This document shows, one piece after another, positions 6,073-59,699 of a stretch of DNA of 64,000 nucleotides (position 1 is its first letter; each line of letters begins with the position of its first letter). The notes under the pieces are model-generated. The model saw only the letters and a list, made by a program, of their open reading frames with translations. It did not search any database and was not told the DNA's origin. Position numbers and translations under genes: made by a program. Source of the stretch: Raillietiella orientalis (lineage: Eukaryota); assembly GCA_036172245.1 (NCBI GenBank), contig JAYWIR010000025.1:1488001-1552000 (forward strand), given 5' to 3'.

Positions 6073-9000
6073 ATGAAGCCATTCCAGGTAAAAAAAAAAC
6101 AAAAAACAAAACAAAAAAACAAAAAACAAATGTGTCCTTGCATTCAATCATTCTTCATTTCGTGTCGCGAACGATTAACGAGAGAACCCTTTGTTAAGCG
6201 AATTCAAGATATCCATAAAAATCTATTTTATTGAAATGAAATATCTTAGAGATAGTAACCCGTGTTAATTTTCCAAGTTGGTAGCTATCATATTAGCTAC
6301 ATGCTTTATAAATGGAAGTAGATCCAATAGCGCCGGCTCGACAAGCAAGCTGCACAGGAGACCATCTATCCATGATGTCCACAGAGCCACTGGCGCAAAG
6401 ATCGGCTTGGGACTTAAGCGTTCCCATGGTAAGCAAGCAGCAGCGGCGCAATGATTGTCACTGAGTGCTTGTAGCTAAGAGGGACATCGAGTCGGCACCG
6501 GAACAAAACTATCTCGCTCCGGCCGCTGCACCATCCCAAGCATACGTAGCACCTGTCAGAAGAGTTGTAGCAGCGGCTCCGGCTCAGGCATACTCGGCGC
6601 CAATAGTACCTGTTCGAAGAGTTGCTGCAGCTTCCGCTCCGGCACGAGCGTACGCAGCACCGACATCCTCCTACATTGCTCCAGCAGCAGCAGCACCGGC
6701 CTTCTCCTACTCTGCTCCAGCGGCAGCACCAGCAGCCTCCTACGCTGCTCCCGCCGACACATATGCTGCTCCCGCAGAAACTTACGAAGCACCAGCAGCC
6801 GCTCCTCCGGAGACCTACGAAGCTCCAGCAGAAACCTACGAGGCACCCGCAGCCGCTCCTCCGGAGACCTACGAAGCGCCAGTAGAAACCTACGAGGCAC
6901 CCGCAGCCGCTCCTCCGGAGACCTACGAAGCGCCAGTAGAAACCTACGAGGCACCCGCAGCCGCTCCCCCGGAGACCTACGAAGCGCCAGTAGAAACCTA
7001 CGAGGCACCCGCAGCCGCTCCTCCGGAGACCTACGAGGCACCGGCAGCTGCTCCTCCAGAGACCTATGCAGCTCCTCCCGAAACCTATGCTGCTCCCGCA
7101 GAGACCTATGCTGCACCCCCTGAAACCTACGAGGCACCCGCAGCCGCTCCTCCGGAGACCTACGAAGCGCCAGCAGAAACCTACGAAGCACCCGCAGCCG
7201 CTCCTCCGGAGACCTATGAAGCTCCAGTAGAAACCTACGAGGCACCCGCAGCCGCTCCTCCGGAGACCTACGAAGCGCCAGTAGAAACCTACGAGGCACC
7301 GGCAGCCGCTCCCCCGGAGACCTACGAAGCGCCAGTAGAAACCTACGAGGCACCTGCAGCCGCTCCTCCGGAGACCTACGAAGCGCCAGTAGAAACCTAC
7401 GAGGCACCGGCAGCTGCTCCTCCAGAGACCTATGCTGCTCCTCCTGAAACCTATGCTGCTCCTCCTGAAACCTATGCTGCTCCCGCAGAGACCTATGCTG
7501 CACCTGCAGAGACCTATGCTGCTCCAGCAGAGACCTATGCTGCTCCCGCAGAGACTTATGCTGCTCCCGCAGAGACCTATGCTGCTCCCGCAGAGACCTA
7601 TGCTGCACCCGCAGAGACCTATGCTGCACCCGCAGAGACCTATGCTGCACCCGCAGAGACCTATGCTGCTCCCGCAGAGACCTATGCTGCTCCCGCAGAG
7701 ACCTATGCTGCTCCCGCAGAGACCTATGCTGCACCTGCAGAGACCTACGGTGCACCAGCTGCCGCAGCAGCGCCAGCACAAGCCTATGCGGCTCCGGCAG
7801 CAGCGGCACCAGCACAAGCCTATGCGGCTCCGGCAGCGGCACCAGCACAAGCCTACGCGGCTCCAGCAGCGGCACCTGCAAGAGCCTATGCGGCTCCGGC
7901 AGCAGCGGCACCAGCACAGGCCTACGCGGCTCCGGCAGCAGCGGCACCAGCACAGGCCTACGCGGCTCCAGCAGCAGCAGCTCCAGCACAAGCCTACGCG
8001 GCTCCAGCAGCGGCACCTGCAAGAGCCTATGCGGCTCCAGTAGCAGCAGCACCTGCACAAGCCTACGCAGCTCCAGCAGCGGCACCTGCACAAGCCTACG
8101 CAGCTCCAGCAGCGGCACCTGCACAAGCCTACGCAGCTCCAGCAGCAGCAGCGCCAGCGCGAGCCTACGCGGCTCCAGCAGCAGCAGCTCCAGCACAAGC
8201 TTACGTGGCTCCAGCAGCGGCTCCAGCAGAAGCATACGTGGCTCCAGCAGCGGCGCCTGCGCAAGCCAACGTGGCTCCAGCTTTCTCTGCTCCTGCCGAA
8301 GAAGTAGCTCGGGACAACACCATCCGGATAGTGGCTCCCGCTGAAGCTTCCTATTCCAGAGCACAGTCTTTCAATGTTCGCGCTTCGGTAACCCAGGAAG
8401 ACATCGCTGCTGCGGCAGCAGCGGTTCCGCTGTCAGAGTATGTGGCTCCTGCCGCAGCTCCAGCAGCAGCTCCAGCACAAGTCTATGCGGCTCCGGCAGC
8501 AGCGGCACCAGCACAGGCCTACGCGGCTCCGGCAGCAGCGGCACCAGCACAGGCCTACGCGGCTCCAGCAGCAGCAGCTCCAGCACAAGCCTACGCGGCT
8601 CCAGCAGCAGCGGCACCAGCACGGGCCTACGCGGCTCCGGCAGCAGCGGCTCCAGCACAGGCCTACGCGGCTCCAGCAGCAGCGGCACCAGCACGGGCCT
8701 ATGCGGCTCCGGCAGCAGCAGCTCCAGCACGGGCCTACGCGGCTCCGGCAGCAGCAGCTCCAGCACGGGCCTACGCGGCTCCGGCAGCAGCGGCTCCAGC
8801 ACAAGCCTATGCGGCTCCGGCAGCAGCGGCACCAGCACAGGCCTACGCGGCTCCGGCAGCAGCAGCTCCTGCACAAGCCTATGCGGCTCCGGCAGCAGCG
8901 GCACCTGCCAGAGCTTACGCGGCTCCAGCAGCAGCTCCAGCACAGGCCTATGAGGCACCTGTCCAATCAGGTAAGACTGCCACTCTGTCACTCTCTTGAA

Positions 9001-10399: not shown

Positions 10400-12240
10400 T
10401 CAAGCGCGGTGCTGGTTGACACCCGGTCACGAGGCGTTTATTTCTAAATCTACATGTTTGATCCTGCCACGTTACTTATGGATACGAGGAGGAACCTGCC
10501 GGGATCTGGCACGCACGTCAGCAGGGTTCGCCTCGGCCGCACAGGGGAAGGAGACACAAACAAAAAGAAAAAAAAATAAAACAGAAAACATGCAGTCAAA
10601 AAAAATGGGGAGAGGGTTTGGGAAGGGATCACTGTGTGCTGGTGGGTGTCCTCTGCATCTTTGTAAGGATGCCGACAAGTTCTTGTTTCAAGACTCCCAA
10701 ATGGGACCATCTTGATGATCTCTTCATGAAGAGGGCAACAAAATGGATGGCGTCCCCTCGTCCTGGTCTCCTCTGGCATTGCTCCATGCAGCCACGGTCC
10801 TGCCGCGTGGGCAGCAGAGTGCTGCTGGGGATGCGGCCGGAGTGAGGGCGTCGCGCAGGGAGGCGCTTCAAAACTCTCTGGGGTTGCCCTCAGGGATCCT
10901 CAGGCTCGTGGAAAAGCATCCCCAAAGGGGCTGGAGGGCAGCACAGTCCACTAGGAGGTGCGGGAGGGATTCCCGCTCCCCACACCTTGCACAATTTGAA
11001 TCCACACACCCGTGTCCAATGATGCCGGCGGGCGTTGCACGGGAGGCCCCAGTGCATCATCATCAACGCCAACTCCTATCACTTTAAGAAGAGGGTGTTC
11101 AGAACTCCGAGGGCCACTGCAGGTTTTCCTCCGGAATACCCAGTAGCACGCCCCAGCACAAAAGTTCACGAGGACGAGCATTCGGGGTCGCAGCGTCGAT
11201 GTGCTGGCCCGTTTTTCACTCTCCCAGTCCTTTCCTCCTTTCGGAGGTTTCCACAGTAACCTCTCATCTAGCCGTAAGGCTGTTGCCCATGTGTTCCTTA
11301 ACGTAGGGCAGCACGGCGGCGAGGGAGGTTCTGCTTGCCCATCCACTCTTCGCGGGATCTTCCAGGATTTCCCGGAGCATGCTGTCGTTACGCGCGTACA
11401 GGAAACGTCGCCCCTGTTCCACGCTTGGCTCCTGGATCCTCGCTCACCTGCGAACGGTTTCCTCCACTCGCGGGTTTGTACGAGATGCTTCCGTTCTTCC
11501 TAGTCTGCGTGGCCGCGAGTCCCACTCTGCCGTTGGCTTGCTGAGCGAGGAGGCATGCAGCTTGGCACCAGATGGTGCTCCACAACTTTGCCATGAGGCA
11601 GGTGTCCGAAACTGGAGCTCCAGCTCCAGGAGGCTCAGCGTCAGGAGGCCTAGGTCGCAGTCCGAGCGGAGCACACAAGTCCTTTAGGAGGACTCGGGGC
11701 CTCTGTTTGCCCCAGAGGGCGATCCGGAGAAGGTCCTTCGTCCGATTCCCGATGCTGCATGGCGGAGGGCAAACAAAATCAGGGGACGGAGGAGGTGGGC
11801 CACGAAGGCGTTCCATGCTGTGGCCCGTTACGGCAGGTAAAACCCGTCTCTTTGGAACGGGCCGAGCTCCTGGAGTGCTTTCTGAAGACGGCCAGACCAG
11901 GTTTCCGCGGAGCTGAAGTCCTCCAGCGGAACGCCCAGGTTTTTTAAGTACCGTCCCGCGGGGATCCTCAAGCGGATCCAGTCCAGCCGCCCTGCCCACG
12001 CTGCACCAAAGGGAACCACGGACGACTTCGCACTGTTCACCAGTGATCCGTCCCGCGGCTGTGCAACTCGAAGAAACCGTCGAGTGTGCATGCCGGGATG
12101 GACATGGAAAGCAACAGCAGAAGATCGTCCGCGTATGCTCAGACGGCAGGCGTGCTGGGACATACGCGCCGGTGGAGGGCCAGAGTCTTCCTGTATGCTC
12201 TCAGTACCAATTCGGAATAGGTGCTTAAGAGCAGGCGCTG
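10400..12240 (-). mobile_element. L1/Tx1-like LINE, 3' part (RT C-half, zf-RVT, 3' UTR), degenerate
   Basis: AYADDLLLL (YADD at 12124-12135), GSLVNSAKS, YLKNLGVP, the CARCGERESLPHLLVDCAALQPLW zinc finger near 10930-11000, and a 3' end AATAAACGCC...ACCGGGT shared with the copies at 39.0 and 48.2 kb. Confidence 0.8.
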
Positions 12241-13389: not shown

Positions 13390-15050
13390 CGGAGCATCTC
13401 GCAGTTGGCGCCACGTGGCTGAAATTGCGGGACTTTTCGCGCCACGACTCCCTTCCTCCAGGACTCCCTCTTCACGGTGGAAGCAAGATTCTCGGGAAGG
13501 AAAGCTGGATTTTCTTCACTTCGCATTCGCTGGCCGAATCGACGTAGTCGGTAGCATCCATCTCGTTCTAACTGTGATGGCATCCTGAGATCTGAACGCT
13601 CCAAAATCTCGAGGCTGGGAGGGTGCCAGAAAGAAAATCATCAGCTTGGGCACAGGCAGAGGATATGCTTTCTGAGATTGAAAAAAAAAAAAAAAGTCGA
13701 TGGGTACTTTGGAAATCTGCATTGGTTTTTGACGATTTGCGAGCTCGTTTGGAGCCCTCAGGCTCAGTTCCGTTAAACACCACTAGGGAATTGACTTTTG
13801 GTGACCAGAGAATGAAAATTCAACGAGTGGTCGGATTCATCCGACGAGATCTTCGAGTGGTCTCACCATTTTCTAAGGATTTCCACTTCCAGAACGAGAC
13901 AAGGAAACATAGGAAATGAAACTCGTTCTGAGGAGGTTGCAGCTCGGATGGGAGCTGCCATCTTCCTCGCCGAAGCACCAAGTGGTTTCACGTAGGAGAT
14001 GAATGTACAATACAAAATACAAAATGTGCCTCCCAAGGGAGTAGCGATTTCCGATCGGAAAAAAATGCCTTGGATCGGTGCCTCCTGATGCTCCATCTAT
14101 CAAAGATTTCCGGATCCATTCGCTCTTTCCAGAAAATCAAAAATTCTACCAAAAATAAAGGTAAAGCAAAAAGGAAGGTGAGCCGTAGAGTATGGTGAAG
14201 AGTCACTGGAATTTCGAGATGATACTTCTAGAAACGAGCGTATGGATCACAAAAATTTCGCCCTTTAACATCTTCGATTCTCGATGAAAGCACCGCCCTC
14301 CTCTTCGTATTTGCCTCTTTCCCAGAGTTCCAGGTAACATTTCACCAATCCGTTTCTCCCGTCATTCGGCTGCAACAGCAGGATTCATCCTGAAAAATAT
14401 CCCTGGGCATTCTTTGGCTGTAGCGTACCAAAGCAAAAGAGCAAGCGCTAAGAGAGCAAGTGGAAGCTTAAAGAACTCTTGAAAGCAATGGAGACAAGCT
14501 CCCGTCGTAGCAGATAGTAAATGTTAGTTGCATCAGACTGGTAAATGATCTTTGGTTTCGGCATCTTTTTCACTGGACCGCGAAGAATCCAGTTTGGATC
14601 TGTATGCTGCAAATGCTCTCATTTCCTTGTAGCACTCGTTGCGGAACGTTGAGTCGAGTCTTAACAAGCATCTCGTGATGGGCTTGGGAGCAAACGCCTG
14701 GATAAAGCATCGACACTCTGGAGGAGTGGCGAGCCGCATTTCTGTTAGCAGAAGTCCCGGGTTCGGCATGGAGCCGTTCCGAAGATTGGGAGATTCTCTA
14801 CCAGATTCTCAATTTTTGCGGCGTCTCCTTTATGTCTCATTTTGCGAACGACCACGATGATTGCGGTCCATTTTTTGTTTGGTCCTTTCATAGCTGGTTT
14901 GCTCACTTTTCGGAATTCTGCGCTTCTTCCCCCCCCCCCCTTCTCTCACCTACGTCTGTCAAATCCGCTCTCCCCATACGCGAGCAGAGACCTCTTCGAG
15001 AAGGAGCACGCACTCAGTGTACATTCCTTAATACTATAGACGGGAATCTC
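13390..15050 (+). mobile_element. Highly decayed LINE RT / zinc-finger remnant
   Basis: Weak RT-like segments plus SFCERP.../AVHFLFGP (zf-RVT-like) near 14830-14890. Confidence 0.3.
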
Positions 15051-18019
15051 AGAGCAAATGTGTATGAAATGAGTGAAGGAAAACCGAGAGACTGAATTGA
15101 GCCTGAAACCAGAACCCTTCCTACTTTAGGTGACACAGGTTCTTGGAAGCGGTACCTTTGCTGCTGGAGCTCATGCCTGACAGTTTGCCGTGCCTCATCA
15201 ACTCACGAGTCTTTTAGCCGGGTTTCCTCACTCTGAAAACTCTTAGTGCCTGGTGCCCATGATGATTCCGTAGCGGAAACAAGCAAGTGGTCTTCTCTGG
15301 ACAATCATCCCCCAACTGAACTCCCAGTTAAACCTTGGTACTAATCAGAACATCTGCCTGTGGGTGGGTCGCAACTTTTTCCTTTCCTGAGGACCTGTCT
15401 TCTCATTTCTGGTTTCGCATGAGCGCTTTTAGGCACAGCTTTTTGGTGTGCTCAAGAACACTTTCTCGAAGCTTCGCTCACAGACATACGTTTCCAAGAA
15501 CAGGGTTTTCTGAGCCAGTCAGTCAGCGGCCTCCAAGACCATAAGGAAGTTTCCTCCTCCAGGATGGAAGAACTGCTTTTGGAGTGTGCTGCTGCTGATG
15601 CAAATTAAGAGCCCGAATTCCAAAAGAATAAAGATTCCTTGATGTGAGTCGGTCTGAACAAAGTTATGTTTCTTCGACAACGAGACGCGCCCAATGTTAG
15701 AAAACTCTTTAGCATCCATTCATCCCTCGCTGCTCGTCATTATGCGAGACGAACGGATTCTTCGAGATAGGTGAAACATGGTAGAATTCCGCCATTCAGC
15801 CGTGCTATGCGGCGAGCAAGACTGAAGTATAGATAAATAGATGGAGCCACATTCCCTTGCATTTCCGTGAGAAAACGGCCCGCTAAAAGCGATTCCCCCC
15901 CACTCCCCATGTTTTTCCAGAAGGAAGGAAGGCAAAGTTTGAGCGCAAAATTGCAGAATCAGAGCGAGATGAAATCCGAGCTACCTGCATATGGAATCGA
16001 AGTTGGTCTCCCGCTCGAGATTACTGTTTTGAAAGCTCTTGTATTTGAAAAGTTTTGTTAAAAGTCGTCATCTTTGACCTTGCCGAGGTTATAAACAATT
16101 TATCTCTTACCACCATACATTGCATTAAGTGTTTATGAATTTCGCGTTATTCGTGATGTTTTTTCCTTCCAATGTTGATTTGATTTGCATCTCGCTGGTC
16201 AGTCGGTGGGTGTGCGCGCGGGCGCTTTTTTTTTTTTTTTTTAATTCCCTTTGCCCTTCCATAGAAGTAGCTCCCAAACTCCAGGAAAAAAAACTCTGCT
16301 TACCAGCTTCCTGCCAATTTCTGGATGGCAGTGTTCATTTGGGAAATGAGAACGGGGAAAGAAGATTCTCGTTTCCACCAGGAGGCAGCCACATGCGATT
16401 CACGCTCATAGTTTTGAGGTGAGAGAATGGAGGGAGAGCCCTACGCATCCATTTTAAGGATTCGAGCAAGGTGCATTAAGAGCACGAGTTCTTGCAAGCA
16501 GACCACACATGGCATTAAAATGCACTTAGAGCTTATTTCAGTGCCACATCACACAGGCATGTATCACAGCAGCGGCAGCTGCTTGTCACAATCCAATATC
16601 CAAGACGTGTTACGGAATGCGTAGCTGTTGCGGGTTTTAAGGACAGTGGGATGCTCGAGATCAAAAGAACGAAAAACGATCTCCAATCCACTCGTTTTGA
16701 AAGCCTTGATTCTTCAAAGTAGATGCGATTCTTCCATTCTCAGGGTGACCTCAACGACAAGAGAACTTAGGACTCGGTGGACAGCTACCACGCTGTGCGT
16801 CAAGTTCGAAGTCAGCGTCGAATGCTCAGTCCAGCTTCCGGCTTAATTTTTGACTCAATTGATGTTATGAAACTCAATCTTCAAGTTCTCCGTGAGCAGA
16901 GAAGCACGACAGATGCAACATACCAACTCCGATGGCATTCACTGTCTGTGTGCTCTTCTAGAATATTGCTTCAAGTTTCAGTGAAGATTCTGGCATAGTT
17001 TGAAAAGTGGCATTTCATTTTGAAAATCTCAAGAAGGAATGAGGATAGCTGCTCAAGGAAGATTTACCTTGATGATCGCTGCTAAAGAACTTCGGGTTGT
17101 TCTGTTTCGTGCTCTTCAATGAAACGACCAGTTGTTTCAAAAATTTCCTGCAGCTTTCTAAACCTCAGGTTGTGAGTTTTCGGATCTTCACGCAACTCAA
17201 AAACCATCAGTGGATCCTCTATGCGAGATGAAAAAAGCACGAGCTGTTATCCAGGAGTCAAGCATCCATGAGATCCGTGTAAAAGACTTCGATTTTAAAT
17301 CCACAGCCGGCTCAGTACTATTTGCAAGTCAAAGCCCATCATCGTCTTGGCCTCTCTAGGAACCGCCATCGAAAAACAGGTTCAGAATGCCGGGAGCATC
17401 ATCTGTCCCAACTATAAAATCTGTTGTAGCATCATCAAATCATTCTGAATCCTCCATACATTTTGCTCGTTTCAAACTGCTTTCATGACTGTTTCATATC
17501 GACGTTAGATTTAGTGACGGCTCTCTCTGTCCAAAAGACATAGACAGTTTTTTTTGTTCTTTGGTTTGGTAGTAACAACAGGAAAATGACCATCCGAAAG
17601 AAAAGAGCAGAAGATCCCTCTCATGAGGCGGATCCGCATCAGGCGGAGAAAAAATGGCGACAGCCCTCATATAACGCGGCAAATCAGCACCTCACGAACG
17701 CTATGGAACGCTATTCTGACTTTGTCGTAAAGTCCTGCTGCCGTGGAAAAGAATGCAAACGCGTGAACCAGAGAGGTTGGATTCGACCACTCCAAATTTC
17801 CGTGAACAAAGCGGCATAAGGAGGCACATTTTTCAACCACGAGAATGGTGCAGCTGAAACTCTAGAATGGTTTGAATGGATTAATGCATCTGAAAAACTC
17901 TAAAAGCTTCTTGTTTTTTTTTTTTTTTGGATACATACCCTACTGTTATACTCTATAAGAAATTTTTTCTGTCTTTTGTAAATGCTATCCACGCTATCCA
18001 TGCATAACCCATAGGGTTC

Positions 18020-19480
18020 GTACAACGCGGAACGCATCCTCTGAGTAGAACGGGGACCAACTGTACTTAATTTGGATAAGCTTGCAAAGCAGTGTTCATT
18101 GCTTTGCAGCAGAATGTTGGAGTGAGCATCACTTCCTTCCTCAACCGGAAGAGCTCTTCTGCACGGAGCACCCAGTGGATGTTTCTCCGAAAAAGAGTGT
18201 TTATGGCATCAGGGCCTTCTGGATGCAATTTCAGTCCTATTGTTTCCGTTAAGAAAACAACGTAGCTGGAATCGTTATTCTCCGTTTCATTTTGATAGCT
18301 GGGGATGCTTCAGACGTGTCTTTTGTTTTTCCTTCCCGTAGCCTACTGATTTTTGCTGCTTCTGGAACGGGAGGTCACCCAATGAATAAAAACACAACAG
18401 AGTTATTCTGTTTTGTAGATGATTATTGTAAAATAATAGATGAAAATTTTGCAAGCAGGCTACTACCCAACGGCAAAAAAACCAAAAGAGTGCCAGAAAT
18501 AACATGCTCTTGAATTATAACAATAATTCTATTATATCAGCAATCTAGATATGAGAACTTTAAATCATTTTATATACTCTACTTAAAGCCATTGCATAAG
18601 TCGGACTTTCCAGCACTACCTTCATATGATAGGCCCGCTTCGTCTTTGAAGTTTGCTAGGCAAACTGTCCTTCAAGCACATTGCTTGTGACAGAAAGTTT
18701 TCCAGAGTTCATGATTAGCTTGCTTTTCCTGGGGATCAATCACTCTAAATGTCCTTCTTTCGTTATTTTTGGTCACTATGGATTTGCTCCCGCGAATAGC
18801 CTGTTCAAAATGGCGTTCGTTCTGTGCAGATATCCAAGAAGAGCACGTCCTGGTGTTTTGACTTTTGGCGAGTCCCAAGTGCCTCAAGAATTTGACCGTA
18901 TTACGCCAAGTGATGACGGACGTGTTCGTTCTTCTTTCCTGACCTGAGGAAGGTCGCTCGCACGCTTTACTAAACTAACTTCACCTGCAAGTAGATGGAG
19001 CTGACCACGTTAGAGGTCAGGCAGCGGAGTTTCACATGGAGGCAAGGAAGATGAGCGAAGCTATGCAACCGTCAGGGCAGTCCTGAGAGCTGCTCAATTT
19101 CCCAACAGCCGATAAGAGCAAAAAGTTCAGTACATGCTGCGAGCCAAGGCCACTCACGCAGGTTACAAAAAAAGGAAGATGTCAAGATCGAGTTCTGATA
19201 TTTGAAGATACCAATAGATACAAAGTAGTCATTACAGAGGAAGACATGAAATCGAGGGAAAGGTGAAGTGATTCGTCTCAGAGTGATAATTTGAAATCCC
19301 GCACATCGAATTCGAGGATCTAGAAGCGATGAAAATTTCGTTGGGCAGAAACTCTCAGAAATCAGGTGGGTTGATCCGGTGCTCATGGCCGAATAAGAAA
19401 TGTGTCTTTCCACAGGAGTCAGTGTATGTGTGTCAGCCGAACATGCACGACTTTGACTCATCACTTCTTATCCACCCTCC
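18020..19480 (-). mobile_element. Decayed L1/Tx1-like LINE ORF2 remnant interrupted by a bacterial IS fragment
   Basis: In order along the minus strand: GCWEIE (~GxWKLN), KDEAG|HWVTS (split by the insert), PEGPDAINTLF (~SPGPDG), KLIQ (~LIPK), SWSPF (~WRPISL). Confidence 0.55.
18382..18633 (+). mobile_element. Bacterial IS982-family transposase N-terminal fragment (pseudogenised; Wolbachia/Rickettsiales-like)
   Basis: MNKNTTELFCFVDDYCKIIDENFASRLLPNGKKTKRVPEITCS*IITIILLYQQSRYENFKSFYILYLKPLHKSDFPALPSYDR matches the IS982 N-terminal pattern (ELxCxVDDFCK...SEIxTIxxLY..S..kNFK.FY...F..LPSYxRF); much more AT-rich than its flanks; one in-frame stop. Confidence 0.85.
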
Positions 19481-20919
19481 ATGAAGTCTATGCAACCTCT
19501 TTCTAAGTTTGACCCTAAAGAAAAAGGGAAGGAAAAAATTTTCCTTTATGAGAAGAGCTCCAAAGAAACTGTGGAACGGAAGAGAAAGTGACAGAATCTT
19601 TGCAATTAACTTCTATTTCTATTTTCATAATTTTTAATTTGGGGGATGGGGAGAGGGGAGGGGAACGACTGGTTCTTAAACCAGCTACAATTCCTCATCG
19701 GAGGGATAAACTTGGTCATTGCATGCATGATTTATTTTAGCATACACAACTCGTGCAAAATGAAAGCACAGTTTTCTTCTTCCTGTGATCATAGAAAGAT
19801 TCGTTTCTGGGGCAGAGAGGACTTGCAGAAGATTAGACAATCCTTTTTCTGTCCACATCCTAAACTCCTTTGCTTTATTGTCTTACCGATGTTCGACAAG
19901 CATCAACTCTTCTCCATCCTTGAACAGAAGCCATGAAAAGAACCTCCATCCATGATAATCATGATGCCCGTTTGTTGAGGATAGTCGCCACTTTAAGCCT
20001 GAACAAACGATTTTCTTTTGTGGAGAATTCCTTTCAAAAAGGAGTGGTTGGGTCTACTTCGAAGATTTAATTATCACCTAATGGGATACCAAACGCCAAA
20101 GACGCGCCATGGGCGCTTGCAGCGAGCAAGAAGAAGAGAGAAGAAAAATTTCTGTTCTAGTTCTGCAAAACGTTTCTCGTGTGCTCTCCATCTCCAAGTG
20201 ACTATTCGACGCTCTCCAAAGAGTGCTTCTCAACCACCATCAGTTTCTTTCGGTTACGTTTTGTTTCCCTTTTTGGATTGCTAAGTCGAGGATTGCACTT
20301 TGAAGATTTCGTTCTCACCTGCCCTCCTTTGGTTTTTCAACTAATGACGGCCGGTACGTTTGTTTAGAAGTAAACAGACAAGTTGGGAACGCAGTTCCCG
20401 AAACAAAAACAAAAAAGAAGTTCAAGGAGAGGCGTCACCGACACGCAGGTCGGTTTCTGTAAGAGTCCAGAGAGGAAGGCAATAAATAAACAAAGGAAAA
20501 GTGGGAGGGAAAACCTTTTGCGCGGGATTTTCCCCAATCGTCTTAGTACCCGCGCGGAATGCCGGCGGCCACTGACTAGACTTCTTCCTGTAGATGAGCT
20601 CTCCTCACGTAGGAGGCTGCCATGCGGGTGATCTCGCTTCGACGTGCCCGAGACTCCGGCACACGGTGAACTGTAACCATGGCGCGGGTGCAGCTGATCG
20701 TTGCAATCCCAGCACCTGCTGAGAGTCTGCAGAGCGTGGAGGATCTCCGCAGCAAGTCCTTGGCACTATCCTCCGGAAGCAGCGGCAAGCTGAAGGCAAC
20801 CTCCTCCACAGTTCGTAGAAGGCACCGCAGTATATGATGGAACAACTGCCTTCTTTCAGTCGGAAACCCCCTATACGTGATTTCAGCTTGCTTGACTTGT
20901 AGCTTTTTTGGGCGCATCT

Positions 20920-21732
20920 TCAGAATTTTCTAGCAACTTTCCGCAAAAGAAGAGTGTGCCAATATGCCGACAGATCCTTTCTGGAAAAGGAGGGCTCTTG
21001 CGCTCTTGGGGCTTCTTCGGATCATTCAGATCGTGTCCGTTCTGCGAAAGCGATGCTGCGATGTACCTGGTTTTCCTCCTTCAGCTTACGGTGAATGCTC
21101 TCTGTTGGAGCAGCATTGCGAAGACCAGATAGATCAGGAGCTGCTGCAAAAAACAACTCCAGTTCATTCTCTGTTAGCTGGAAAGCCAATAGACTCTCGG
21201 CACATTCAGACATGGAATCGACGACGAATCCATGCTGCACGTCGTCTAGTCTCATGAGCTAGCCATTCAGTCACAAGAGCCGGTTATTCCCAGGAAACAC
21301 TTCAGCAGACGCAGCTTCCAACACCTGACAGTCAAACGTGCAGGCTAATCTGATTAGCAGAACTTGGAACACCTCTGTCTTCAAGAGGACAACCTGGTCT
21401 CCCTGCGGCAGCAAGGCAAAACTGGGATGTCTAGCGAGACTCGCTCGCTGAAATCCCCTGGCAACCTCTGCATGTCTGTTATCGCGTTCTGGATCCAGGT
21501 TCAGAGAGAAGGCAAGACAGTCGGGTGCGGTGCCTTTGATTTCTGAATACTCACCACCAGCATTCGCGCTTTTTCGGCGATGAAATCGCTGGTTTCTTTG
21601 TGAGCTTGGATGACCACTCGCGTGATGTGGCTGGGGTCTTCCAACTGTGTCTTGAGATCTGCTTTGCAGAGATTACATAGCTGACAAAATTTTCGCTTTC
21701 TCTTGCTGAGGAAGTCGGCTGAAGCCGCACAG
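20920..21732 (-). pseudogene. E75: E75/Rev-erb (NR1D)-type nuclear receptor pseudogene: T-box, hinge and ligand-binding domain
   Basis: Collinear pieces: AVRFSRLPQQEKAKILSAM*S (~AVRFGRVPKREKAKILAAMQS), QLEDPSHITRVVIQAHKETSDFIAEK, PSFALLPQGDQVVLLKTEVFQVLLIRLACTFDCQ (~PGFxLLxQDDQVTLLKAGVFEVLLVRLACMFD), LL*LNG*LMR, FVVDSMSECAE, LTENELELF...PDLSGLRN. Stops at 21673-75, 21271-73 and 21259-61, plus several frameshifts. Confidence 0.85.
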
Positions 21733-22319
21733 CTCCTTCGGTACGTGGCGAGATGTTCTGGTGGTGAGGCGGTTTCCCAGATGACTGGACGCTGTCGCAC
21801 CAGCAGACTGAGCTCCCAGCAAAGACTCTTCTGCAGGAGGGGGACAAACTCGAACTGCGCATGAAATGTCTCCTGCTCACAGCTCAGCAGCATCAGTACT
21901 ATGGACAGACACGATAAGGATACGAAGATATGCAATATCTCGTCCACTGAATTTCCTCTGGTTCCTTCTTTCGATTTGAAAGCTGGAAGTCCGAATTCGC
22001 TTTAAACAAACTTTTCTTTTTGCCATCCGGATCTTGAAAGCAATGAATTCCCCTTTAGAATCCCATGTCTAGTTCATGGCTCTTCCTAACTACCAACCAA
22101 ATTCCAACACAAGCACAAGACAAGGAAAGGCTCTTCGTTCCGATTCCCGCAAGCCCGAAAACGCCCGCTGGAATGATCTTCAAAAGGTGCTTTTTTCATG
22201 ACCGTTCGGTTGCATCCTTGACGTGCTCCGATTTCGGCAGGTGTGAGATGAAAGAAATGAAGAAATCCGATCACTTGTAATCGAAAAAAAAAAAAAGAAG
22301 AGGAAAAACAAAAACTTCA

Positions 22320-22460
22320 TGTGGCACATCTTCTGAACCGGTACGCTAAGAGTGGACTTAAATGCTAGGATGGACACTTTCGAGTTGTTGGCGTTGGCCA
22401 TGTGCAGCAATTTTATTTCCTCTGGCTTCTAAGTGGATTGAATTTCGAAAGTAAAGGCCC
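22320..22460 (-). pseudogene. Possible eroded second-zinc-finger exon of the same E75 copy
   Basis: GLYFRNSIH (~GFFRRSIQ), CT..., SIL and YRFRRC (~CRLKKC) across shifted frames, upstream of the AVRF exon. Confidence 0.3.
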
Positions 22461-23369
22461 GAAGCTCTTCGATGTCATAAGTGAAAACACTTGATCTGAT
22501 CCCTCGTTCCTTCTCATCGGATGTCAGCAGCACATGGTGTAGGATGTAAGTATAGGATGTAAGCAAAGACTTGGAAATGCATGGGTTCTATTTCAACGGA
22601 TGCGAACCGAATACTATCTAAGGAAACAGTAACCAGATCGATATCTTCCCCTGATCTATACATATGCATGTAATTCACTCCTATGACTTTCTGTTCTATT
22701 TCTAGCATTGGCTGTCAAGAACCACATGTACGTGAACATCACGTTGCTGCCCATCTTAACAGCATCTTAATAACATCATCTCTAAAGGCAATTTTATTGA
22801 AGTTCTGAACATAATTCTTTATTTTGGGGATTCTTTGCTTTACTTCTTCCGTCTGTCTTGAATTGTTTCCATCGACTTATTCCCCGCTGTATTTTTTTCA
22901 GCTTCCCGTCGAAAAATGTGAAAATTAGCACCTGCAAATTAAGGACTCACGAAATAAGGACATAAAATTTTCTTTCTGGTATCTTTTGACTTTTTGAAAG
23001 TCCTCTGCAGATCTACGAATCTTTTCAGCAAGTCACGGTACACATGATGCCAGGAAGCGGATTGTTCCATTTGTCCTTCCTCGGCTGTTTCGTTTGTTTC
23101 AAGACACTCACAAGTCTGCAACTCGAAGAAATATGTTGTGAATTCACTGAGAAATATCTGACTTTCTTCATTCTGGAAAAAAGACCCATATTCTTGGATC
23201 TCAAATGGCTTGAATCCGTCGTTTCAGCAGCTAAAGACGTTTGGAAGCCAGATTCCATGAAAGCAGTCTCAACGAGCCTGACCTACGGACACCCACTTTT
23301 CAAAGTCTCGATCTAGAAGAAAGAGATGCTTATGAGGCGCAGTATGCTCAATTTGATAATTTTCATCCG

Positions 23370-48320: not shown

Positions 48321-49479
48321 TGACTGACCTCTCGACGATCCTAGATATGATCCCAGAAGCACAAAGCAGGAGGGACCACAACAGGTGGTGACACCGGTAC
48401 ATGCGCTGCACGAGCAAAGCCCCCACCTCATCTGCTCTTCAACATCCGTGCTTTTTCTATGCACCTAACGTTGCGTGATCTCCCAGCTGCCAGCTCCTTG
48501 CGCAAAGTTCGTGCAGTGAAGGAAGGAGCAGGCTTTCCCTCCCGGGAGAATAGAAAGAAAAAACCGGTCCCTTAGGCAACATGGCGAATGCCGAGCGACT
48601 CCATCTCGACAGCGCTTCCGGTTCCCGTTCCTCAGAAGGAATTCCATCTCGCAGTCCATCGAGCGGGAGTGAAGTGCCAGCGACGACTCTGTCGGAGCGC
48701 ACCCTCCCCACAGATGGTCCACAAAAATCAGGGTCTCGTCTCGGGGACTCCCCCATCAACGGGAACGTGTGCAGAACCGAGGTGCCACCGCCGCCGAGGA
48801 ACCGCGACTTTCTTAAGGATGAGACGCACCTTGGCACAAGAAGAGAAGCAGCTGTGGCGGTCATTTCCCGTTAGTTTCAGCCGGGCAGGTAGGAGCGGAG
48901 TGACTGCGGACGAACCAAAGGCAACCGGGGAGCGGTGTTGCGTCTTCCAAACCAACACGCGACCCCTGCGGGCAAGAGGACTCGAAAGAGACGTGCCTCC
49001 TTTGCGACCCTTGCATTTCGAGCACACCGAGCAGCCTGCTTGAACCGGAGAGGAAAAATAGATCTGAGTGTGTGCTGCTCCAAAATGAAGTGGTCCGAAT
49101 CTCACTGGAGGCATGACTGGGAAAGAAGATCCACAAGAAACAAAGCAGTGCTCAATAGGTAAATAGGGTCTGGGACGAAACAGCCTGACAGCGGCACCCG
49201 TGATTTCCGAGGGTTTGCGTTGGGAGAGCTAGAGCGCCATCACTGGTTGTGAGCAGCCGAACTCCCGCAATTGTCTTTAGCACCACCTGAAGGATGCGAG
49301 AACGAGGAGGAAAGGAGGGGAAAGGGAAAAGCAGAGAGAAGGAGGGAAGGATGGAAGAGGAAGAAAGGGGGGAGAGCTAGGATGAAAAAGGAAAAGGAAG
49401 GGAGGTGGAGGAGGAGGAGGAAGGGGGGGTTGAAGGACGAAGGAAGGAAGGAAAAGGACAAGAGAAGGAAGGAAGGGTG

Positions 49480-52400
49480 GAAAGGGCAGGAGGCGGCGGT
49501 CGTCTGTGGGCTGCTCGCGTGCTTGTGCGCGGCCTCCAGCGGTGCGGCAGTCACCTAGCCCTTCAGGCTCGACGGGGGAACGTAGGTGACGTCGTCGGAC
49601 GCTCAACCGAGGGAGGGCAGTGGCGGCGGCGGCGGCGAGGGGAAGGGGAGGGGAGGAGAGGTTAGCAAGGGTTCGGCGCGTTCCAGGGGCCTCCGGGGCG
49701 AGGGGACACGTTGCGCACCCGCTCACCCTTCCGGTCGTCCCCCTCCTTTTCCGGAGGAGGAGCAGGGGGCGACGGAGGAATCTCGGCAAACAAACAGGTC
49801 GCGGCGCGGTGCGGGCCCTTCGGGGATGCCGCACGCCTCCAAGGCGGCTGTGTTGGAACGCTCGAGGGAGCGGGGGTTCAAACTGCCGCCGCCGCCGCCG
49901 CTGCCGCGGGCGACCACCGCTTTTGCCTCGGGAAACGCGGTCGCCCGCCGCCGCCGCCGTCTCGCGCTTGCCGGCGGGAACGCTCCTCCGGGACGGCTCC
50001 GCGAAAAGGGGGGGGGGGGAGAGGGAGGAGAGGGGAGTAGGGAAGGGAGGACGAGGGAGTGGAAGTCTTGTTTGGGACGTCTGCGGCACTGGAAAAAGAA
50101 AGGAGGAAGGAAAGGTGCTGCTCCGCTCGCGCCAGATGCGCAACAGCGCCTCCACCGCGGAACGATCCGTGGTCGCTCGTACGGCGGCCGCCGCCGTCGC
50201 CTCTCCTGCGGGCGGCCGTGTCCCCCCCCCCCCTCGTGACTCGCACGCCCAGCCGCCGCGCGCCGCGTGCGCGGACCCCGCGCGGAGAGAGAGCGCGTGT
50301 CGCCGTCACCTTCGGCGAATTCCCTTTCGGCACGAGGAGAGGGCGGAGGGGTGGGTTAGGAGGGAGGGAGGGAGGCTGCGGCGGCGCCAGGCGCTGCTGC
50401 TGCTGCTGAGGCGGCGGCGGCGGCGCCGGCGGCGGTGACGTCACCCCGCCTTGCTCTCTCTCTCTCTCCTTCCTCTCTCCTCCACCTCCTCCACGCGGTG
50501 TTCTTAAAAAGTAGGTCAGCGGCGAGGCCGGCAGCACACGATCGTCCAGCCGGCGAGCGCGTTGCTGGTGCTGTTTCTGGTGCTGCTGCTGCCACTGCCG
50601 CCGCCGCCGCCGCCTCCACAGAGCTCCGCCGCCTCGCGAGCGCGCCGCGTCGCTCGCACCGCACTCGCGCCTGCCTGGCCCCCCCGTCGTGACGTCACCA
50701 GCATCTCCCGCGTGCGTCCTCCGCCCCATCCGCCCCTTGCCGCCGCGTGAGCCCTCCAGACAGCAGCCCAGCCCCTCCTCCGACCCCTCTTTTCGGGCGA
50801 CTGCCCCGACGCCACCCTTCCCTCTTCTCGCCTCCACGGGATGCGCCGCCGTCGCCAGCCGACTGCCCCGTCGGCGCTGGCGCTGGCGCCGCCCCGGACG
50901 ACGATGACGACGGCGCTGATGGTGCCGCTGCTGCTTCTGCTGCTGCGATCCCCAGGTAGGTCGCGCGGAGGGTACCGTGGGGGAGGGGGAAGGGAGTGTA
51001 TTTTTGGAATTCCGAGGGAAGGACACGAGGCGTCTCCGTCCTTCGTGGGACGCCCTTTTATCCCGTCCCACTCTTTCACTTTGCTTCCCTCATCCACAGC
51101 CGGCTCCATCTTCTTCCCTCCCTCTCCCCCAGCATGTGCGTGAGTCCGTCTTGCGCTCCCTTCCCCTGTTCTGAACGACTCCCAAAACCCCTCCTTTCCT
51201 TTTTGAAAAGAGAGGGAGGGAGGTGGCGCCCAATTGTGGGGATGGTCAAGTGCAGCGCCGGCGGTTTCTGGAGAGATGCGCGCGCGCCGGTGGATTCTTC
51301 TTGTACGAATTCCCCCTGTCCCGCTTCTGAATCTTTGGGAAGGAGGGGGAGAGCGGCGATGGTCTCTGCGGCAGCGGCAGCACACGGGCAGACGGCAAAT
51401 CGCGCCTTGCTGCTGCCCCCCCTATCCCTTACCCCTCCTCTTCCCGTCACGAGTGCGACCGGACTTCCGCTCCTGCTCCTGCTTCCCCTCCCCGAGCACC
51501 CATCGTTTTGCCCGGATGCGCACCTGAGAAACCTGTCGTGCGCGCACGCGTGCTCCGGCACGGGGAGGTTTCCGTAGCAACCGGCGACCTTTCGGCAGCC
51601 GAGGAGAGAGGAGGAAGGAAAAAAGAGAGAGAGAGAGAGAGGGCGCTCCGTGTGGGCAGAAGCATGCAGCCTTTCCCGTTGCCGAGCTACCGAGGCGCTC
51701 GGAGTGGACCTCGCGCGCCACCAGCCGTATCTTTTTCCTGGGAGTGAATCCGTAACCGAGCGGGGTGCCGCGAAGAACCTCCGCCAGCACGCGCGTGCGC
51801 AGCGTGGCGTCGTCGGCGGCAGCCGCAGCTGGAGGGACGGAGGCGGCCGTTGCGCAAGGACCTCCGTCTCGCTCACACCCGCGCGAGCGGCCGATCCGGA
51901 CGGAGTGCGGCCCTCCTAAGAGGGAGAGGAGTCGCGTGGTCCGTCCCACTGCCCCCTGTGCCCATCCTCTTCCTCTGCCTCTTCCTCCTGACAGGAATGC
52001 CATCGACGAGGCAGCTGTCGGTACGAAGCGGCCATTTCGGGAGACTCCCAAGCTGGCCATGATGGTCCGGAATTCCTCCACAGGGCGGGAGCACCCGGCA
52101 GTGACCGATCGGCAGGTCGCATTTGGTCCACCCTGGGCGAAGCGTCCCCATCCGGAGGTCGAGCACACGTCCCGAAGCGCGGGACGCCTGCGCGTCCCGT
52201 GCGTACCTTTCATCCGTGTGGCTCACCCCACCCTCCGGAGCGGGATTCCCCCCGCGGGGTAGGTAGGAGGGGGGGGGCGCACAGCAAGGCGCCGCCCCCG
52301 CACGCGCGCACCACGTCCTCGCCGTCCGCGGGCGGCGGTGGCGGCGGACGGCAGCGCAATCCCGCCGCCGGCCATGGAACCACGGACGCACGTCACACTT

Positions 52401-52800
52401 GAGTGGATGTAGGTCACTCTTTCTCACCCGGATCCCGTGCGCGCGCGCGCACTTTCGCTCCGCTTGAATGGCGACGGAGGGAGGTCGCGTTTCCATGGTT
52501 TCCTTTCCCTCTCTCCATGTCTCTCTCTCCGTCCATTCCACCTCCTTTCTTTCGGTCTCCCACCGCGCGTCGGCTGCTGTCGCGAGCCCGTCCGGCGCGG
52601 AGAGTTCAGCCTCCTCCTCGACCGGGGACGTCGCCCGTAGGCAGTGAGCCCAAACTCTTACTCCCCTCCTCCCTCGCAGAGCGCGTCCCCCGGTCAGGCT
52701 CTGCAAAAGACTACTGCGAGGCAACTACGGCCGCTGCCACGACGGCAAGGAGAGGAGGAGGAGCTGGAGGGAAGGAGGACCGCTGCCATGATGACAAGGA
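49480..52800. promoter_or_regulatory. CpG-island-like GC-rich promoter / first-intron region of Duox
   Basis: Abrupt rise in GC and CpG content with (GCC)n runs around Duox exon 1; TGACGTCA at 50436-50443 and 50690-50697; AAAGTAGGTCA at 50508-50518. Confidence 0.7.
50841..50955 (+). CDS. Duox: Duox exon 1 (signal peptide); exact start ATG uncertain
   Basis: MRRRRQ...MTTALMVPLLLLLLRSP then CAG|GTAGG; phase 1 matches exon 2. Confidence 0.65.
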
Positions 52801-55800
52801 GGAAAGGGGGAGGGGAGGAGTAGGGAAACGTGCATCCGTTCGCGCTCTTGGTGTATCTGCCATCTTCCTCCCCCTTGTCTGACCGCGAGGGCACCGAAAC
52901 AGGAAGAAGGTGGAGATGGCGGCCGTGAAAGGTCGTCCCTTTTCCTCTCCCCCTCTGCTAAGCGCAGCTCCTCTCCCTCGTCCTTTCTGCCTCGTTTTCA
53001 TATATCGGGGAAAGGAAGGGAAGGATAGAGGTGTAGGGAGATGGAAGTTCCGCGACTTCCGATGGTGACTTCCCGCACCCGTTCAAGGAAGGTTCCTCTG
53101 TTGCAGCGGCGCCGGCGTGGAAGCACGAGAAGCAGCGGTACGACGGATGGTACAACAACAGGGCCCACCCTTCGTGGGGGAGCACGGGTAAGTTGCCTTC
53201 CCCCTCCCTTCCCTCCGGAAGGCCAATCCGAGGAAGCAGCAGCAGTGACGAGGGGTGGTCTTCCGGGAGCGCTCGCTGGTCCGCCTCACCCATCCCTTGT
53301 TCTTCTTGCAGACAGCCACCTGGTGAGGAAGGGAACGGCCACATACGCAGATGGCGTCTACATGATGCAGGGAAACGACCTGCCCAATCCCCGCGACCTC
53401 AGCCAGGCGCTCATGAAGGGGGTCGACGGCCACGGGTCCCTGAAGAACAGGACAGTTCTGCAAGTGTTTTTCGGTGATTGTTCCCTTCCATGCTTCGTCC
53501 GGGATGCTGTTCCCTTTTTTTTCCCTTTCCTGCTTGCGGACCCCGCGGTCACGTGACTGGCCGCATGCTGCGCGCTCCGAACCTACCGGCCGGCCGGCCG
53601 CCACACCCCTCTCGTGCCAATCAAACAAGCACCCCCCAGCCTTTCAGCCCATCCGCTCGCCATCCTCCTGACCAGCATCCCCCATCCCGACCTCCACAGC
53701 AACACCGCCCAACGGTCGCTCCTATTTGCGTGCCGAGGAGGGGGGCCTGCCGCTGCATCCCTCGCTCCTCCCGCTTTCTAGAAAGTGCGATCTCTGCAGA
53801 AGCTGCGCTCGCAAGAGTCTTCGACTTTTTTCTTGGCGTGCGGCAATCAGCCCTTCCTTGCCGGTCGACGTGTGAGTGCTTAACCAGAATTTTTTTTTTT
53901 TTTGTCCTTCAAGGGCAAGTCATAACATCGGAACTGATGCTGGCCAGTGAATCGAGCTGCCCCATCGAGATAGAGAAGATAGAGATCGCTCGATGCGACG
54001 AGATGTACGACAGGGAGTGTCTGGGGAACAAGTTCATCCCATTCCACAGAGCTGGGTACGATCCTCAAACCGGGCAGTCGCCGAACAGGCCCAGAGAGCA
54101 GGTGACTATCCATCTTCGCGCGCGGGAAAAAGACAGCCGGGGGTCACGTGATTCCGGAAGGACGTCCGCCGCAGACGTTCCGAACTTGCAGCATTTCGCG
54201 GCACGGCCACCACCGCGTGCGCGCACCCACGCGCATTTCTGCTTCCACGCCTCTCGCATATGCATGCAGGTGATGCAGCGTGTCCCACGGCGTCTATCTG
54301 CTTCATACGCGTCCTGCGTCCTTGCATATGCACGCACATGGCCGTTCTCCCTTGCGTATGTGTGTGCACACAACATGCGTGGTGTGTGCGCATACGTTCA
54401 CGATGCCGCCTGCGCTCTAGCCTTGGCTTCAGGGGGATCGAAATTTTGGCTGGACCTGTTTCCAAAAAAAAAAAAAATTTCCCTGCTCAGGGTTACGCTG
54501 GGGACATCCAAGCTCAAGGCGTTGCTAACATGTGACCACTTTGGAGTGCTCGCGTGATTGTCTGCTCGCTGCTGCCACAGGAGGGGGGGGGGGGAGACTT
54601 GCAAGAGCGTCCCCGTACCGTGCTTCGGAGAGAGCCTCGTAGGGGAACCAAAGGGAGGTAGAATTCGTCTCCTTCGTGATGCCTGACGACGCCGTCTCCT
54701 CCGTATCTCTGCAGCCTCGTCTGCGATGCGTGCTCGTGATCTTGGCGCTTTTCCCTTTCATTCTGCTGAGATGGAGCGACCAACATTTCTCCGAAAGCCC
54801 TTGGTTTTCTGGAGCGTCTGCCCTAGAGACCTGATGCTAGTTTCCAAGGAACCTCGCGCACGATCTCATGCGGTGGGGATGAGGAAGAAGAAAGTCCGCT
54901 CCGTGCTCTCGATGCGTCCGCGTAAAGAGGCGCATGATGCTGGGTACGGCTCGCTGGAGCGTCTGAAAGGAAGTCTGACGGCTGCCGCTCGGAAGAATCG
55001 ACTTTCCTAACGGGAAGCTCGTCATTCCGTGAGACGAGTGGGGCTCTCAGAGAGATAAGATGCTCTCTAGCGGTTCCTCGACTGATCGCGCGATGACCAC
55101 AGAAGGCGGAGGAAGCAGCCGCGAAGATAGAGAAAAACAGGATGAGGAATGGTAGCAGTGGGTCCCATCTCTGCAGTGCCAACATGGAACTTCTTGCGGG
55201 AGCGCGCTCGTAGAATCGGAACGCTGGGGCAAAAAGGCACGCAAGTCCCTGGAGGAAGAGGGGACGGGATTCCGCGAGCCGCAGATCGTGGAACAAAATA
55301 GACCCCCGTCCCTCACTTCCTGAGTTCCCTCCGCAAGAGTTGGCACTCTGTAGGTCGTCGCTTTCGCTTCCCGCCGTCTCTCAAAAAAGGCACATCGGAT
55401 TCCACCTTTGGTATTCCTGCTGATCGCGAGGGGAACGCACTGGCGTCCTTCGTAATCGGAGATGCTTTGTCTTCATTCCCTGCCTTCCGCATCCGACTGC
55501 CTGCTCGAAAGTTCTCGAACCCTCGGAGAAAATCCTGCAGCACGGGTTCGCAGCCTCCCGTGGGAAGAAACGTCGGAGTCATTGTTGGCGCGAGAGGTCC
55601 GTCCCCATGATTTTACGTCACCCACCTCAGCCAGCAGGCTTACCAAATCGCCTCCTCGTTCAGGAATTCCCCGCTGACGTAATCAGAATGAATAAAAGGA
55701 GGGGGAGGGAGAGATAGGAAGGGGGGAAAAAAAGCGTAAAGCGCTCCATTAATCACCATTGTTTCTCCACTGGAAGAGGGAAAATCGGACTTTCGAGAGG

Positions 55801-58800: not shown

Positions 58801-58882
58801 GAGGGATGGCAAATGCACTTTCAAAAACACCTCCACAACGTCTCCTGCTCTTCGACTCTGCACAGTGTGGTGGGATGCCAAC
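50841..58882 (+). CDS. Duox: Dual oxidase, 5' portion (signal peptide plus peroxidase-homology domain, ~385 aa over 7 exons; gene continues beyond the window)
   Basis: Phase-consistent exons 50841-50955, 53107-53187, 53312-53473, 53914-54101, 57459-57663, 57780-57946, 58646-58882 encode EKQRYDGWYNN, FFGQVITSE, TGQSPNRPREQINSVTSWIDASFVY, LLGDPRSNQNP...FFRWHN and AAAFRFGHSLVPPG. Confidence 0.95.
53107..53187 (+). CDS. Duox: Duox exon 2
   Basis: ttgcag|...KHEKQRYDGWYNNRAHPSWGST|gtaagt. Confidence 0.9.
53312..53473 (+). CDS. Duox: Duox exon 3
   Basis: DSHLVRKGTATYADGVY...LPNPRDLS...KNRTVLQVFF. Confidence 0.93.
53914..54101 (+). CDS. Duox: Duox exon 4
   Basis: GQVITSELMLASESSCPIE...IPFHRAGYDPQTGQSPNRPREQ. 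Confidence 0.95.
57459..57663 (+). CDS. Duox: Duox exon 5
   Basis: INSVTSWIDASFVYSTSEAWVNAMR...SPERMF. Confidence 0.95.
57780..57946 (+). CDS. Duox: Duox exon 6
   Basis: LLGDPRSNQNPAYLAFGILFFRWHNVLAERI...FQKARRFVIASMQ. Confidence 0.95.
58646..58882 (+). CDS. Duox: Duox exon 7
   Basis: NIIAYEFLPAFIG...HPGISNVFQAAAFRFGHSLVPPGLYRRD...LRLCTVWWDAN. Confidence 0.95.
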
Positions 58883-59699
58883 GTAAGTGAGATGCTCCGA
58901 ATTTGCTTTGATTCTGGAATCTTCTCCGTTACCGTTTTCTTCCAAAAAACGGAAAAGGAGATTTTGCTGTCGCCCACAAGACCGCAGCAGCATTCTTGCG
59001 AATTGCCTCGAGCATGCTGCTTCTTGTACCATGCAGCGTACACATTACTCCTAGTTCCAACTCAGCTTCCGCTCACCGCACCCTGTATCAGATGATGCGG
59101 TTCTTTTCTGATTAGGTGTGTGACGGCCAAGTCGTCAAATCTTCAGAGAGGCTTTTTAGTGTCACTTATACGTGTGCGAATTCCATAAGGGTGGTAGGTT
59201 TGCGTGCGTGGTGGCGATACAGTACTCTAGTGTACGATTCGATTTTCCTTCAACAGGTGGAGCGAGCTTTGTCTGCTGCAACCGAACAGCAACAACCGAA
59301 ACTTTCTATTTACATTTGGAAGGCCGGAAGCATCTTCTACAGGTTTCCATCCCTTTCTCTGATAAATCACAGAAGCTTTTTTGTTTTAATTTTATCGGAA
59401 CGTTTCGGCTGGACAGCAGGGTCGGTGTTTTTAAACGGCTTCCCGATGGCACTTCCGGTCGAGTGTTATTTATGAAAAAGAGCGAAAAAGCAGTCCACGT
59501 ACTGTGGTGAATGATTGCTTAGAGCTTCATTTGCCTGCAGCGAACATATTAAAAAGAGTAGTTGCTACTCGAACCGAAAAAGCTTCACCTTCATACATAT
59601 GTGCTATGCAAACAAGTTTTGTGTAATATCTCCGGCACAACACACATGCCGGTATTTTGCTGCCGGAGATATTGTACAAAAGAATCTGCCTTGCAAGCC

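Follow-up and report, generated by a model that had tools for sequence, protein, structure and literature searches.

A Wolbachia-type transposase fragment in the window

The question raised by this locus is how a piece of a bacterial insertion sequence came to lie within what appears to be animal DNA, and whether transposition brought it there. An earlier note on the window (the whole stretch of 64,000 nucleotides of Raillietiella orientalis DNA that was analysed) had described an AT-rich stretch at positions 18382-18633 that encodes the N-terminus of an IS982-type transposase with one stop, and this description held: the GC content is 0.32 over 18370-18633, compared to 0.45 in the adjacent 300 bases, left and right, and 0.51 in the whole window, and translation of 18382-18633 on the forward strand gives 84 residues with a single TGA (codon 44) that match known proteins with E-values down to 4e-39. 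The parts of the fragment are the following.

18370..18633 (+): IS982 (ISWpi16-type) fragment of Wolbachia origin, 264 bp, delimited by BLAST against Wolbachia copies
18370..18381 (+): IS982 5' leader with the ribosome-binding site GGAGG, recognised from the match of leader and ATG to Wolbachia copies
18382..18633 (+): transposase codons 1-84 of 290 (N-terminal region only), from translation and protein matches
18511..18513 (+): in-frame TGA at codon 44, which is GAA in Wolbachia copies, made by two adjacent base differences specific to the window

A protein search, which the earlier note had proposed with the expectation of bacterial IS982 matches, was carried out in two ways. When longer proteins of a large collection were considered, 11 of the 25 candidates matched (E 4e-39 to 2e-12); the best four of these 11 are proteins of 290 aa that are 85-87% identical to the fragment over 100% of the query (E 4e-39 to 1e-37), which chance is far from explaining. 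A query to which both flanks had been added found four shorter proteins, in which the IS part alone was covered (at most 58% of the query). The named best proteins of both searches are from Wolbachia, as anticipated, those of the first search being Wolbachia IS982 family transposases. Pfam returned no family for the 84 residues, and the NCBIfam profile transpos_IS982 matched residues 43-84 with an E-value of 1.9e-5 and 24.4 bits, a score that falls below the 130-bit full-length cut-off because only 41 of the 243 profile positions (3-43) are present. Homology to IS982 transposases extends over the N-terminal 84 of 290 residues only, and what lies in the window is a piece derived from a member of the IS982 family and not an IS982 element. 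Its assignment to the ISWpi16 group is made through its named relatives.

When prokaryotes were scanned with one genome for each species, 18 related loci were detected, 15 of which are in Wolbachia records, with the other three in a Rickettsiales MAG, a Midichloriaceae MAG and Prevotella. Considering that related IS982 copies do exist in the two MAGs, the donor could have been another intracellular bacterium carrying such an element (Rickettsia, Midichloria, Cardinium or similar), but the copy from the Rickettsiales MAG is far more distant (67% DNA identity, whereas seven Wolbachia loci, found in four genomes, reach 80-87%) and every named best protein match is from Wolbachia, which makes a donor of this kind very unlikely. 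In a tree, the fragment pairs with L006, a copy from a cicada Wolbachia, with support values of 81/72, while the rest of the tree is unresolved. L006 is also the closest copy in pairwise comparison (87.1% identity over 264 nt, ungapped). Since the nearest known copy is only 87% identical, the true donor lineage is unsampled. Altogether, the comparisons support the endosymbiont origin put forward earlier and, more specifically, a Wolbachia-type IS982 as the source. The copy L006 (L006:1501-2400) is itself broken, with about 120 intact first codons that are followed by several stops.

The fragment starts in the leader of the element

The earlier note had placed the start of the island exactly at the ATG. 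This turned out to be 12 bases too late: the Wolbachia copies align from 18370, and the leader of the IS makes up the 12 bases that precede the ATG. In BLAST comparisons to all fetched loci, the 12 closest Wolbachia copies align over 18370-18633, two of them stopping at 18632, and a MAFFT alignment with eight Wolbachia-side copies agrees with BLAST on the extent of the fragment; the left edge is uncertain by about four bases. The leader and ATG of the window (GGAGGTCACCCAATG) are identical at 14 of 15 bases to the Shine-Dalgarno leader and start codon of the Wolbachia copies. Outside the two ends, identity to L006 drops to random level (16/60 on the left, 11/60 on the right). The MAFFT alignment also hinted at homology to the left of 18370, an extension that we rejected because identity beyond this position is 16/60.

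A reference IS982 element, obtained from three copies in one Wolbachia chromosome, is 974 bp long. It begins with 5'-AC, its terminal inverted repeats are perfect over 18 nt, and the ATG lies at position 88. With the ATG at this place, the fragment corresponds to positions 76-339 of the reference: it is an internal 27% of the element, and homology begins 75 nt inside it.

The fragment does not look like a transposition product

If the fragment had arrived by transposition, one would look for the ends of the element, for its catalytic domain and for a duplicated target. As the earlier note had stated, IS terminal repeats and a target duplication are missing: the 18-nt terminal inverted repeat of the reference copy is nowhere matched in the window, even when 3 mismatches are allowed, and no direct repeat was found to bracket the fragment. 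The DDE catalytic domain is absent as well, homology stopping at codon 84, and a tblastn search with 11 full or partial IS982 proteins detected no further IS982 piece in the window at E < 0.1. At 264 bp compared to 974 bp for the reference, the fragment is also far shorter than the roughly 1 kb of a complete IS982 element. Lacking terminal inverted repeats, DDE domain and target duplication, the fragment did not transpose, its own transposase being unable to move it, and its arrival by a non-transpositional route is supported. Thus, the part of the earlier proposal that concerned capture without transposition stands, backed by the missing ends, the missing duplication and the internal position of the 27% that is present; the part that placed this capture within a LINE does not, as described below.

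Our best reading, which we regard as quite probable, is that the locus is a small nuclear Wolbachia transfer (nuwt) that was captured by end joining and is now a pseudogene fragment in intergenic arthropod nuclear DNA. Under such a scenario, Wolbachia DNA would have been set free in the germ line, and a piece of it would have been ligated into a chromosome break via end joining, not by transposition. The integrated piece would then have drifted as non-functional DNA, gaining one stop and changing at a few sites that are otherwise invariant. Its coding potential does not go past an open stretch of 43 codons and no function is evident.

Most of the divergence may predate the transfer

We compared the distribution of differences over codon positions. 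The 33 coding differences to the nearest copy L006 fall 6/7/20 over codon positions 1/2/3. A bias of this kind is what is typically seen where functional copies have diverged within Wolbachia, and most of the 13% distance is hence attributable to the unsampled donor. Ten window-specific changes lie at sites where five Wolbachia copies do not vary. Their distribution over the codon positions is 2/4/4, and ten changes are too few to be told from the 12/8/23 seen between two Wolbachia copies. These ten include the two adjacent changes that make the stop at codon 44. A further change, P34T, affects a residue that is invariant in nine related proteins. The window-specific changes are compatible with drift after transfer, their numbers being too small for a test.

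The fragment lies on a contig of arthropod nuclear DNA

To place the fragment in its surroundings, the whole window was compared, in four blocks, to five Wolbachia genomes at the DNA level, and this returned the fragment and two chance matches of 24-25 nt only. At the protein level, 4909 stop-to-stop ORFs of at least 60 aa from one complete Wolbachia chromosome were compared to the window. Among these 4909, the only significant ones are three that come from IS982 copies (E ~1e-40); for the other 21 rows the per-query E-values run from 3.5e-6 to 0.01, most of them within the chance range for 4909 queries, and the strongest row (E 3.5e-6) aligns 29 residues at 11892-11978, where the DNA is GC-rich.

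These comparisons also bear on whether the fragment might be the last recognisable remnant of a formerly larger Wolbachia insert, whose other parts would have decayed or been deleted. Erosion of large nuwts is known (PMC4299567, PMC4046930), but the flanks have a GC content of 0.45, as opposed to 0.35 for the Wolbachia chromosome, and homology ends abruptly on both sides. The flanks are also without protein similarity to the 4909 Wolbachia ORFs, yet the piece between them is still 87% identical to its closest relative, and decay as uneven as this is unlikely. We therefore give a larger original insert very little credence.

The window has 256 stop-to-stop ORFs of at least 90 aa, and Pfam was run on 147 of them; the 109 ORFs that were left out are mostly overlapping frames at the 6.4-9 kb repeat, at 16-22 kb (a region that was scanned separately) and at 42.9-52.9 kb. 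The only family detected in the 147 ORFs was An_peroxidase, in three ORFs, which revealed the following gene.

53029-59092 (+): dual oxidase (Duox) gene, three exons of the animal haem peroxidase domain at 53.3, 57.4 and 58.6 kb, from Pfam An_peroxidase

The three exons cover positions 20-77, 141-194 and 267-349 of the An_peroxidase profile. The last one (58.6 kb) is 53-71% identical to arthropod dual oxidases, and the dual oxidase matches are from a branchiopod, ostracods, beetles, a stick insect, a termite, decapods and a horseshoe crab. No near-identical match was found among them, which means that the collection searched does not include the protein of the host itself. Considering that no other Wolbachia similarity was found in the 64 kb and that the Duox exons are of arthropod type, the contig is arthropod nuclear DNA. 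The fragment lies about 35 kb upstream of the Duox gene, in DNA without recognisable coding content, and in this assembly it is contiguous with host DNA to the left (18 kb) and to the right (45 kb). Rfam found nothing in 14000-23000.

Two other regions of the window stood out during these scans. A GC-rich island at 49000-54000 (0.59-0.68 GC in 2-kb bins) covers the first Duox exon that was found and the DNA immediately upstream of it. Long but spurious open frames are numerous there in each of the six frames, and the island probably corresponds to the promoter and 5' region of the Duox gene. At 6465-8999 on the forward strand, an open frame of 844 codons consists nearly entirely of Ala/Pro/Glu/Thr/Tyr repeats (APAETYEAP and AAPAAAAPAQAY units), with tandem DNA periods of 21, 33/36 and 54 as well as larger multiples. 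Pfam found no family in this frame, which presumably resembles a low-complexity structural protein of arthropods, of the cuticle or eggshell type.

The flanks are anonymous host DNA rather than a recognisable LINE

The earlier note had proposed that the flanks carry ordered motifs of a LINE ORF2 on the minus strand. The two flanks are the following.

17900..18369 (-): left flank, anonymous host DNA in which neither a family nor an Atlas hit nor Wolbachia protein similarity was found
18634..18974 (-): right flank, anonymous host DNA (part of the LINE ORF2 in the earlier proposal) with no family, 0 homologues and no Atlas hit

If the fragment had been captured inside a minus-strand host LINE ORF2 remnant, its removal would be expected to restore the LINE frame. 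A minus-strand frame does run on across the insert, since 264 bp is a multiple of three, and the left flank contains a run of 15 T at 17914-17928, which, read on the minus strand, could be an old poly(A) tail; this A-run is not specific, and it is the sole hint of a retroposon. However, the motifs themselves were undetectable. With Pfam, the six read-through frames of 16000-22000 gave 0 families at E <=1, hence no reverse transcriptase or endonuclease, and eight flank ORFs gave no RVT and no Exo_endo_phos at E <=10, the only matches being three weak, unrelated and sub-threshold ones (DnaG_cat_HB, RecR_HhH and YwqH-like). With HMMER, the 113-aa minus-strand translation of the right flank had 0 homologues among 1.84 billion representative proteins. 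In the Atlas, both flank ORFs scored like shuffled sequence, with no usable match. The flanks also have no second copy within the window: when 16000-21000 was compared to the window, the sole match was one of 43 nt that is unrelated to the flanks.

The peptide KDEAGHWVTS, which had been read as a host peptide restored by joining the two flanks, fared no better. Since 18370-18381 is the element's own leader, HWVTS is IS sequence read backwards, so that half of the rejoined peptide is the leader on the opposite strand. A strongly decayed LINE would escape all the LINE searches that were made; taken together, we consider a LINE context improbable, and capture in anonymous intergenic DNA remains our preferred reading.

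Host DNA on both sides argues for integration rather than for an assembly artefact

Contamination by Wolbachia is common in arthropod assemblies, and reads of an infecting Wolbachia may have been stitched into a host contig, in which case the piece would not be chromosomal. What leaves room for this possibility is that integration is seen in a single assembly. An artefact would nevertheless need two false joins 264 bp apart, within host-type DNA that extends over 18 kb on one side and 45 kb on the other. Unlike an intact copy, the piece also has a stop codon, and one residue that is invariant in 9 relatives is changed in it; the closest copy that could be found is no nearer than 87%. We consequently view an artefact as unlikely. 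Host DNA on both sides, the stop codon and the non-identity to known Wolbachia copies point indirectly, and within one assembly, to a true integration.

Public sequence data were also inspected. One public DNA run (X1, word share 0.05) yielded a contig of 151 nt that is identical to 17944-18094, at a depth of 2.2, and nothing besides this contig over 17400-19600; the insert and its junctions are uncovered, so this run is uninformative either way. Either the run covers the same species very thinly, or the contig is a short segment that is conserved or repeated. The left and right junction strings had 0 matches each in metagenome contigs.

Relation to known Wolbachia elements and transfers

The element from which the fragment seems to derive is well described. 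ISWpi16, an IS982-family element of Wolbachia pipientis, is listed as 981 bp long with a 290-aa transposase (CDS 95-967), 18/18 inverted repeats and no direct repeats, and IS982 family members are given 5'-AC ends (PMC7335449). Some Wolbachia have IS982 (ISWpi16) in abundance: for wPel, 54 copies have been reported, and 44 potentially functional ones (PMC3205602). The features found here resemble this description: the transposases among the protein matches are 290 aa long, the 974-bp reference has 18-nt repeats and a 5'-AC end, and the piece in the window has a matching leader and N-terminus. Unlike the element described in that source, the piece lacks both the ends and the catalytic domain and amounts to 27% of the whole.

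Nuwts are known in arthropods and nematodes, with Drosophila ananassae, Brugia malayi and Glossina morsitans among the reported cases (PMC4299567, PMC3849323, PMC3998919). As in those cases as they are described there, the locus consists of pseudogenised Wolbachia DNA in host nuclear DNA, with no bacterial mobility mechanism; unlike them, it is very small (264 bp, one gene fragment) and known from the sequence of one assembly. In the Wolbachia-free woodwasp Sirex noctilio, twelve Wolbachia pseudogenes were reported, which are mostly parts of mobile elements and include IS4 transposases (PMC8962096). Both genomes, one of an arthropod and one of an insect, would then contain broken transposase genes of Wolbachia insertion sequences, but the report on Sirex noctilio describes IS4 and twelve pseudogenes, whereas here the family is IS982 and a single piece was seen. 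In its origin and in its contiguity with host DNA, the latter as far as this assembly goes, the fragment fits the definition of a nuwt. It is one more, very small case of a well-documented kind of transfer from Wolbachia to host and raises no new question.

Small nuwts mark a present or past Wolbachia infection. Two further possibilities would give the locus more weight, and we judge both of them quite doubtful: that it is a relic left in the genome by a former Wolbachia infection, in an arthropod lineage for which no infection is known today, or that an unrecognised host repeat has been spreading the piece. If a host repeat does copy the piece, the fragment could date the infection and the donor supergroup. 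On the practical side, small nuwts can mislead the contamination filters that are used in genome assembly, and also Wolbachia diagnostics that rely on PCR or reads, since IS982 (ISWpi16) regions have been described as serving as a Wolbachia signal (PMC10755911).

Among the protein matches, a UniRef protein predicted in the tsetse fly Glossina brevipalpis (P0007) and named 'DegP-like' combines part of a Wolbachia-type protease with most of an IS982 transposase. Its IS982 part is 86% identical to the piece in the window; unlike this piece, it is long, extending through the DDE region, and fused to the Wolbachia-type protease. Judging from this composition, P0007 is probably a Wolbachia insert or contaminant that was annotated as an insect gene.
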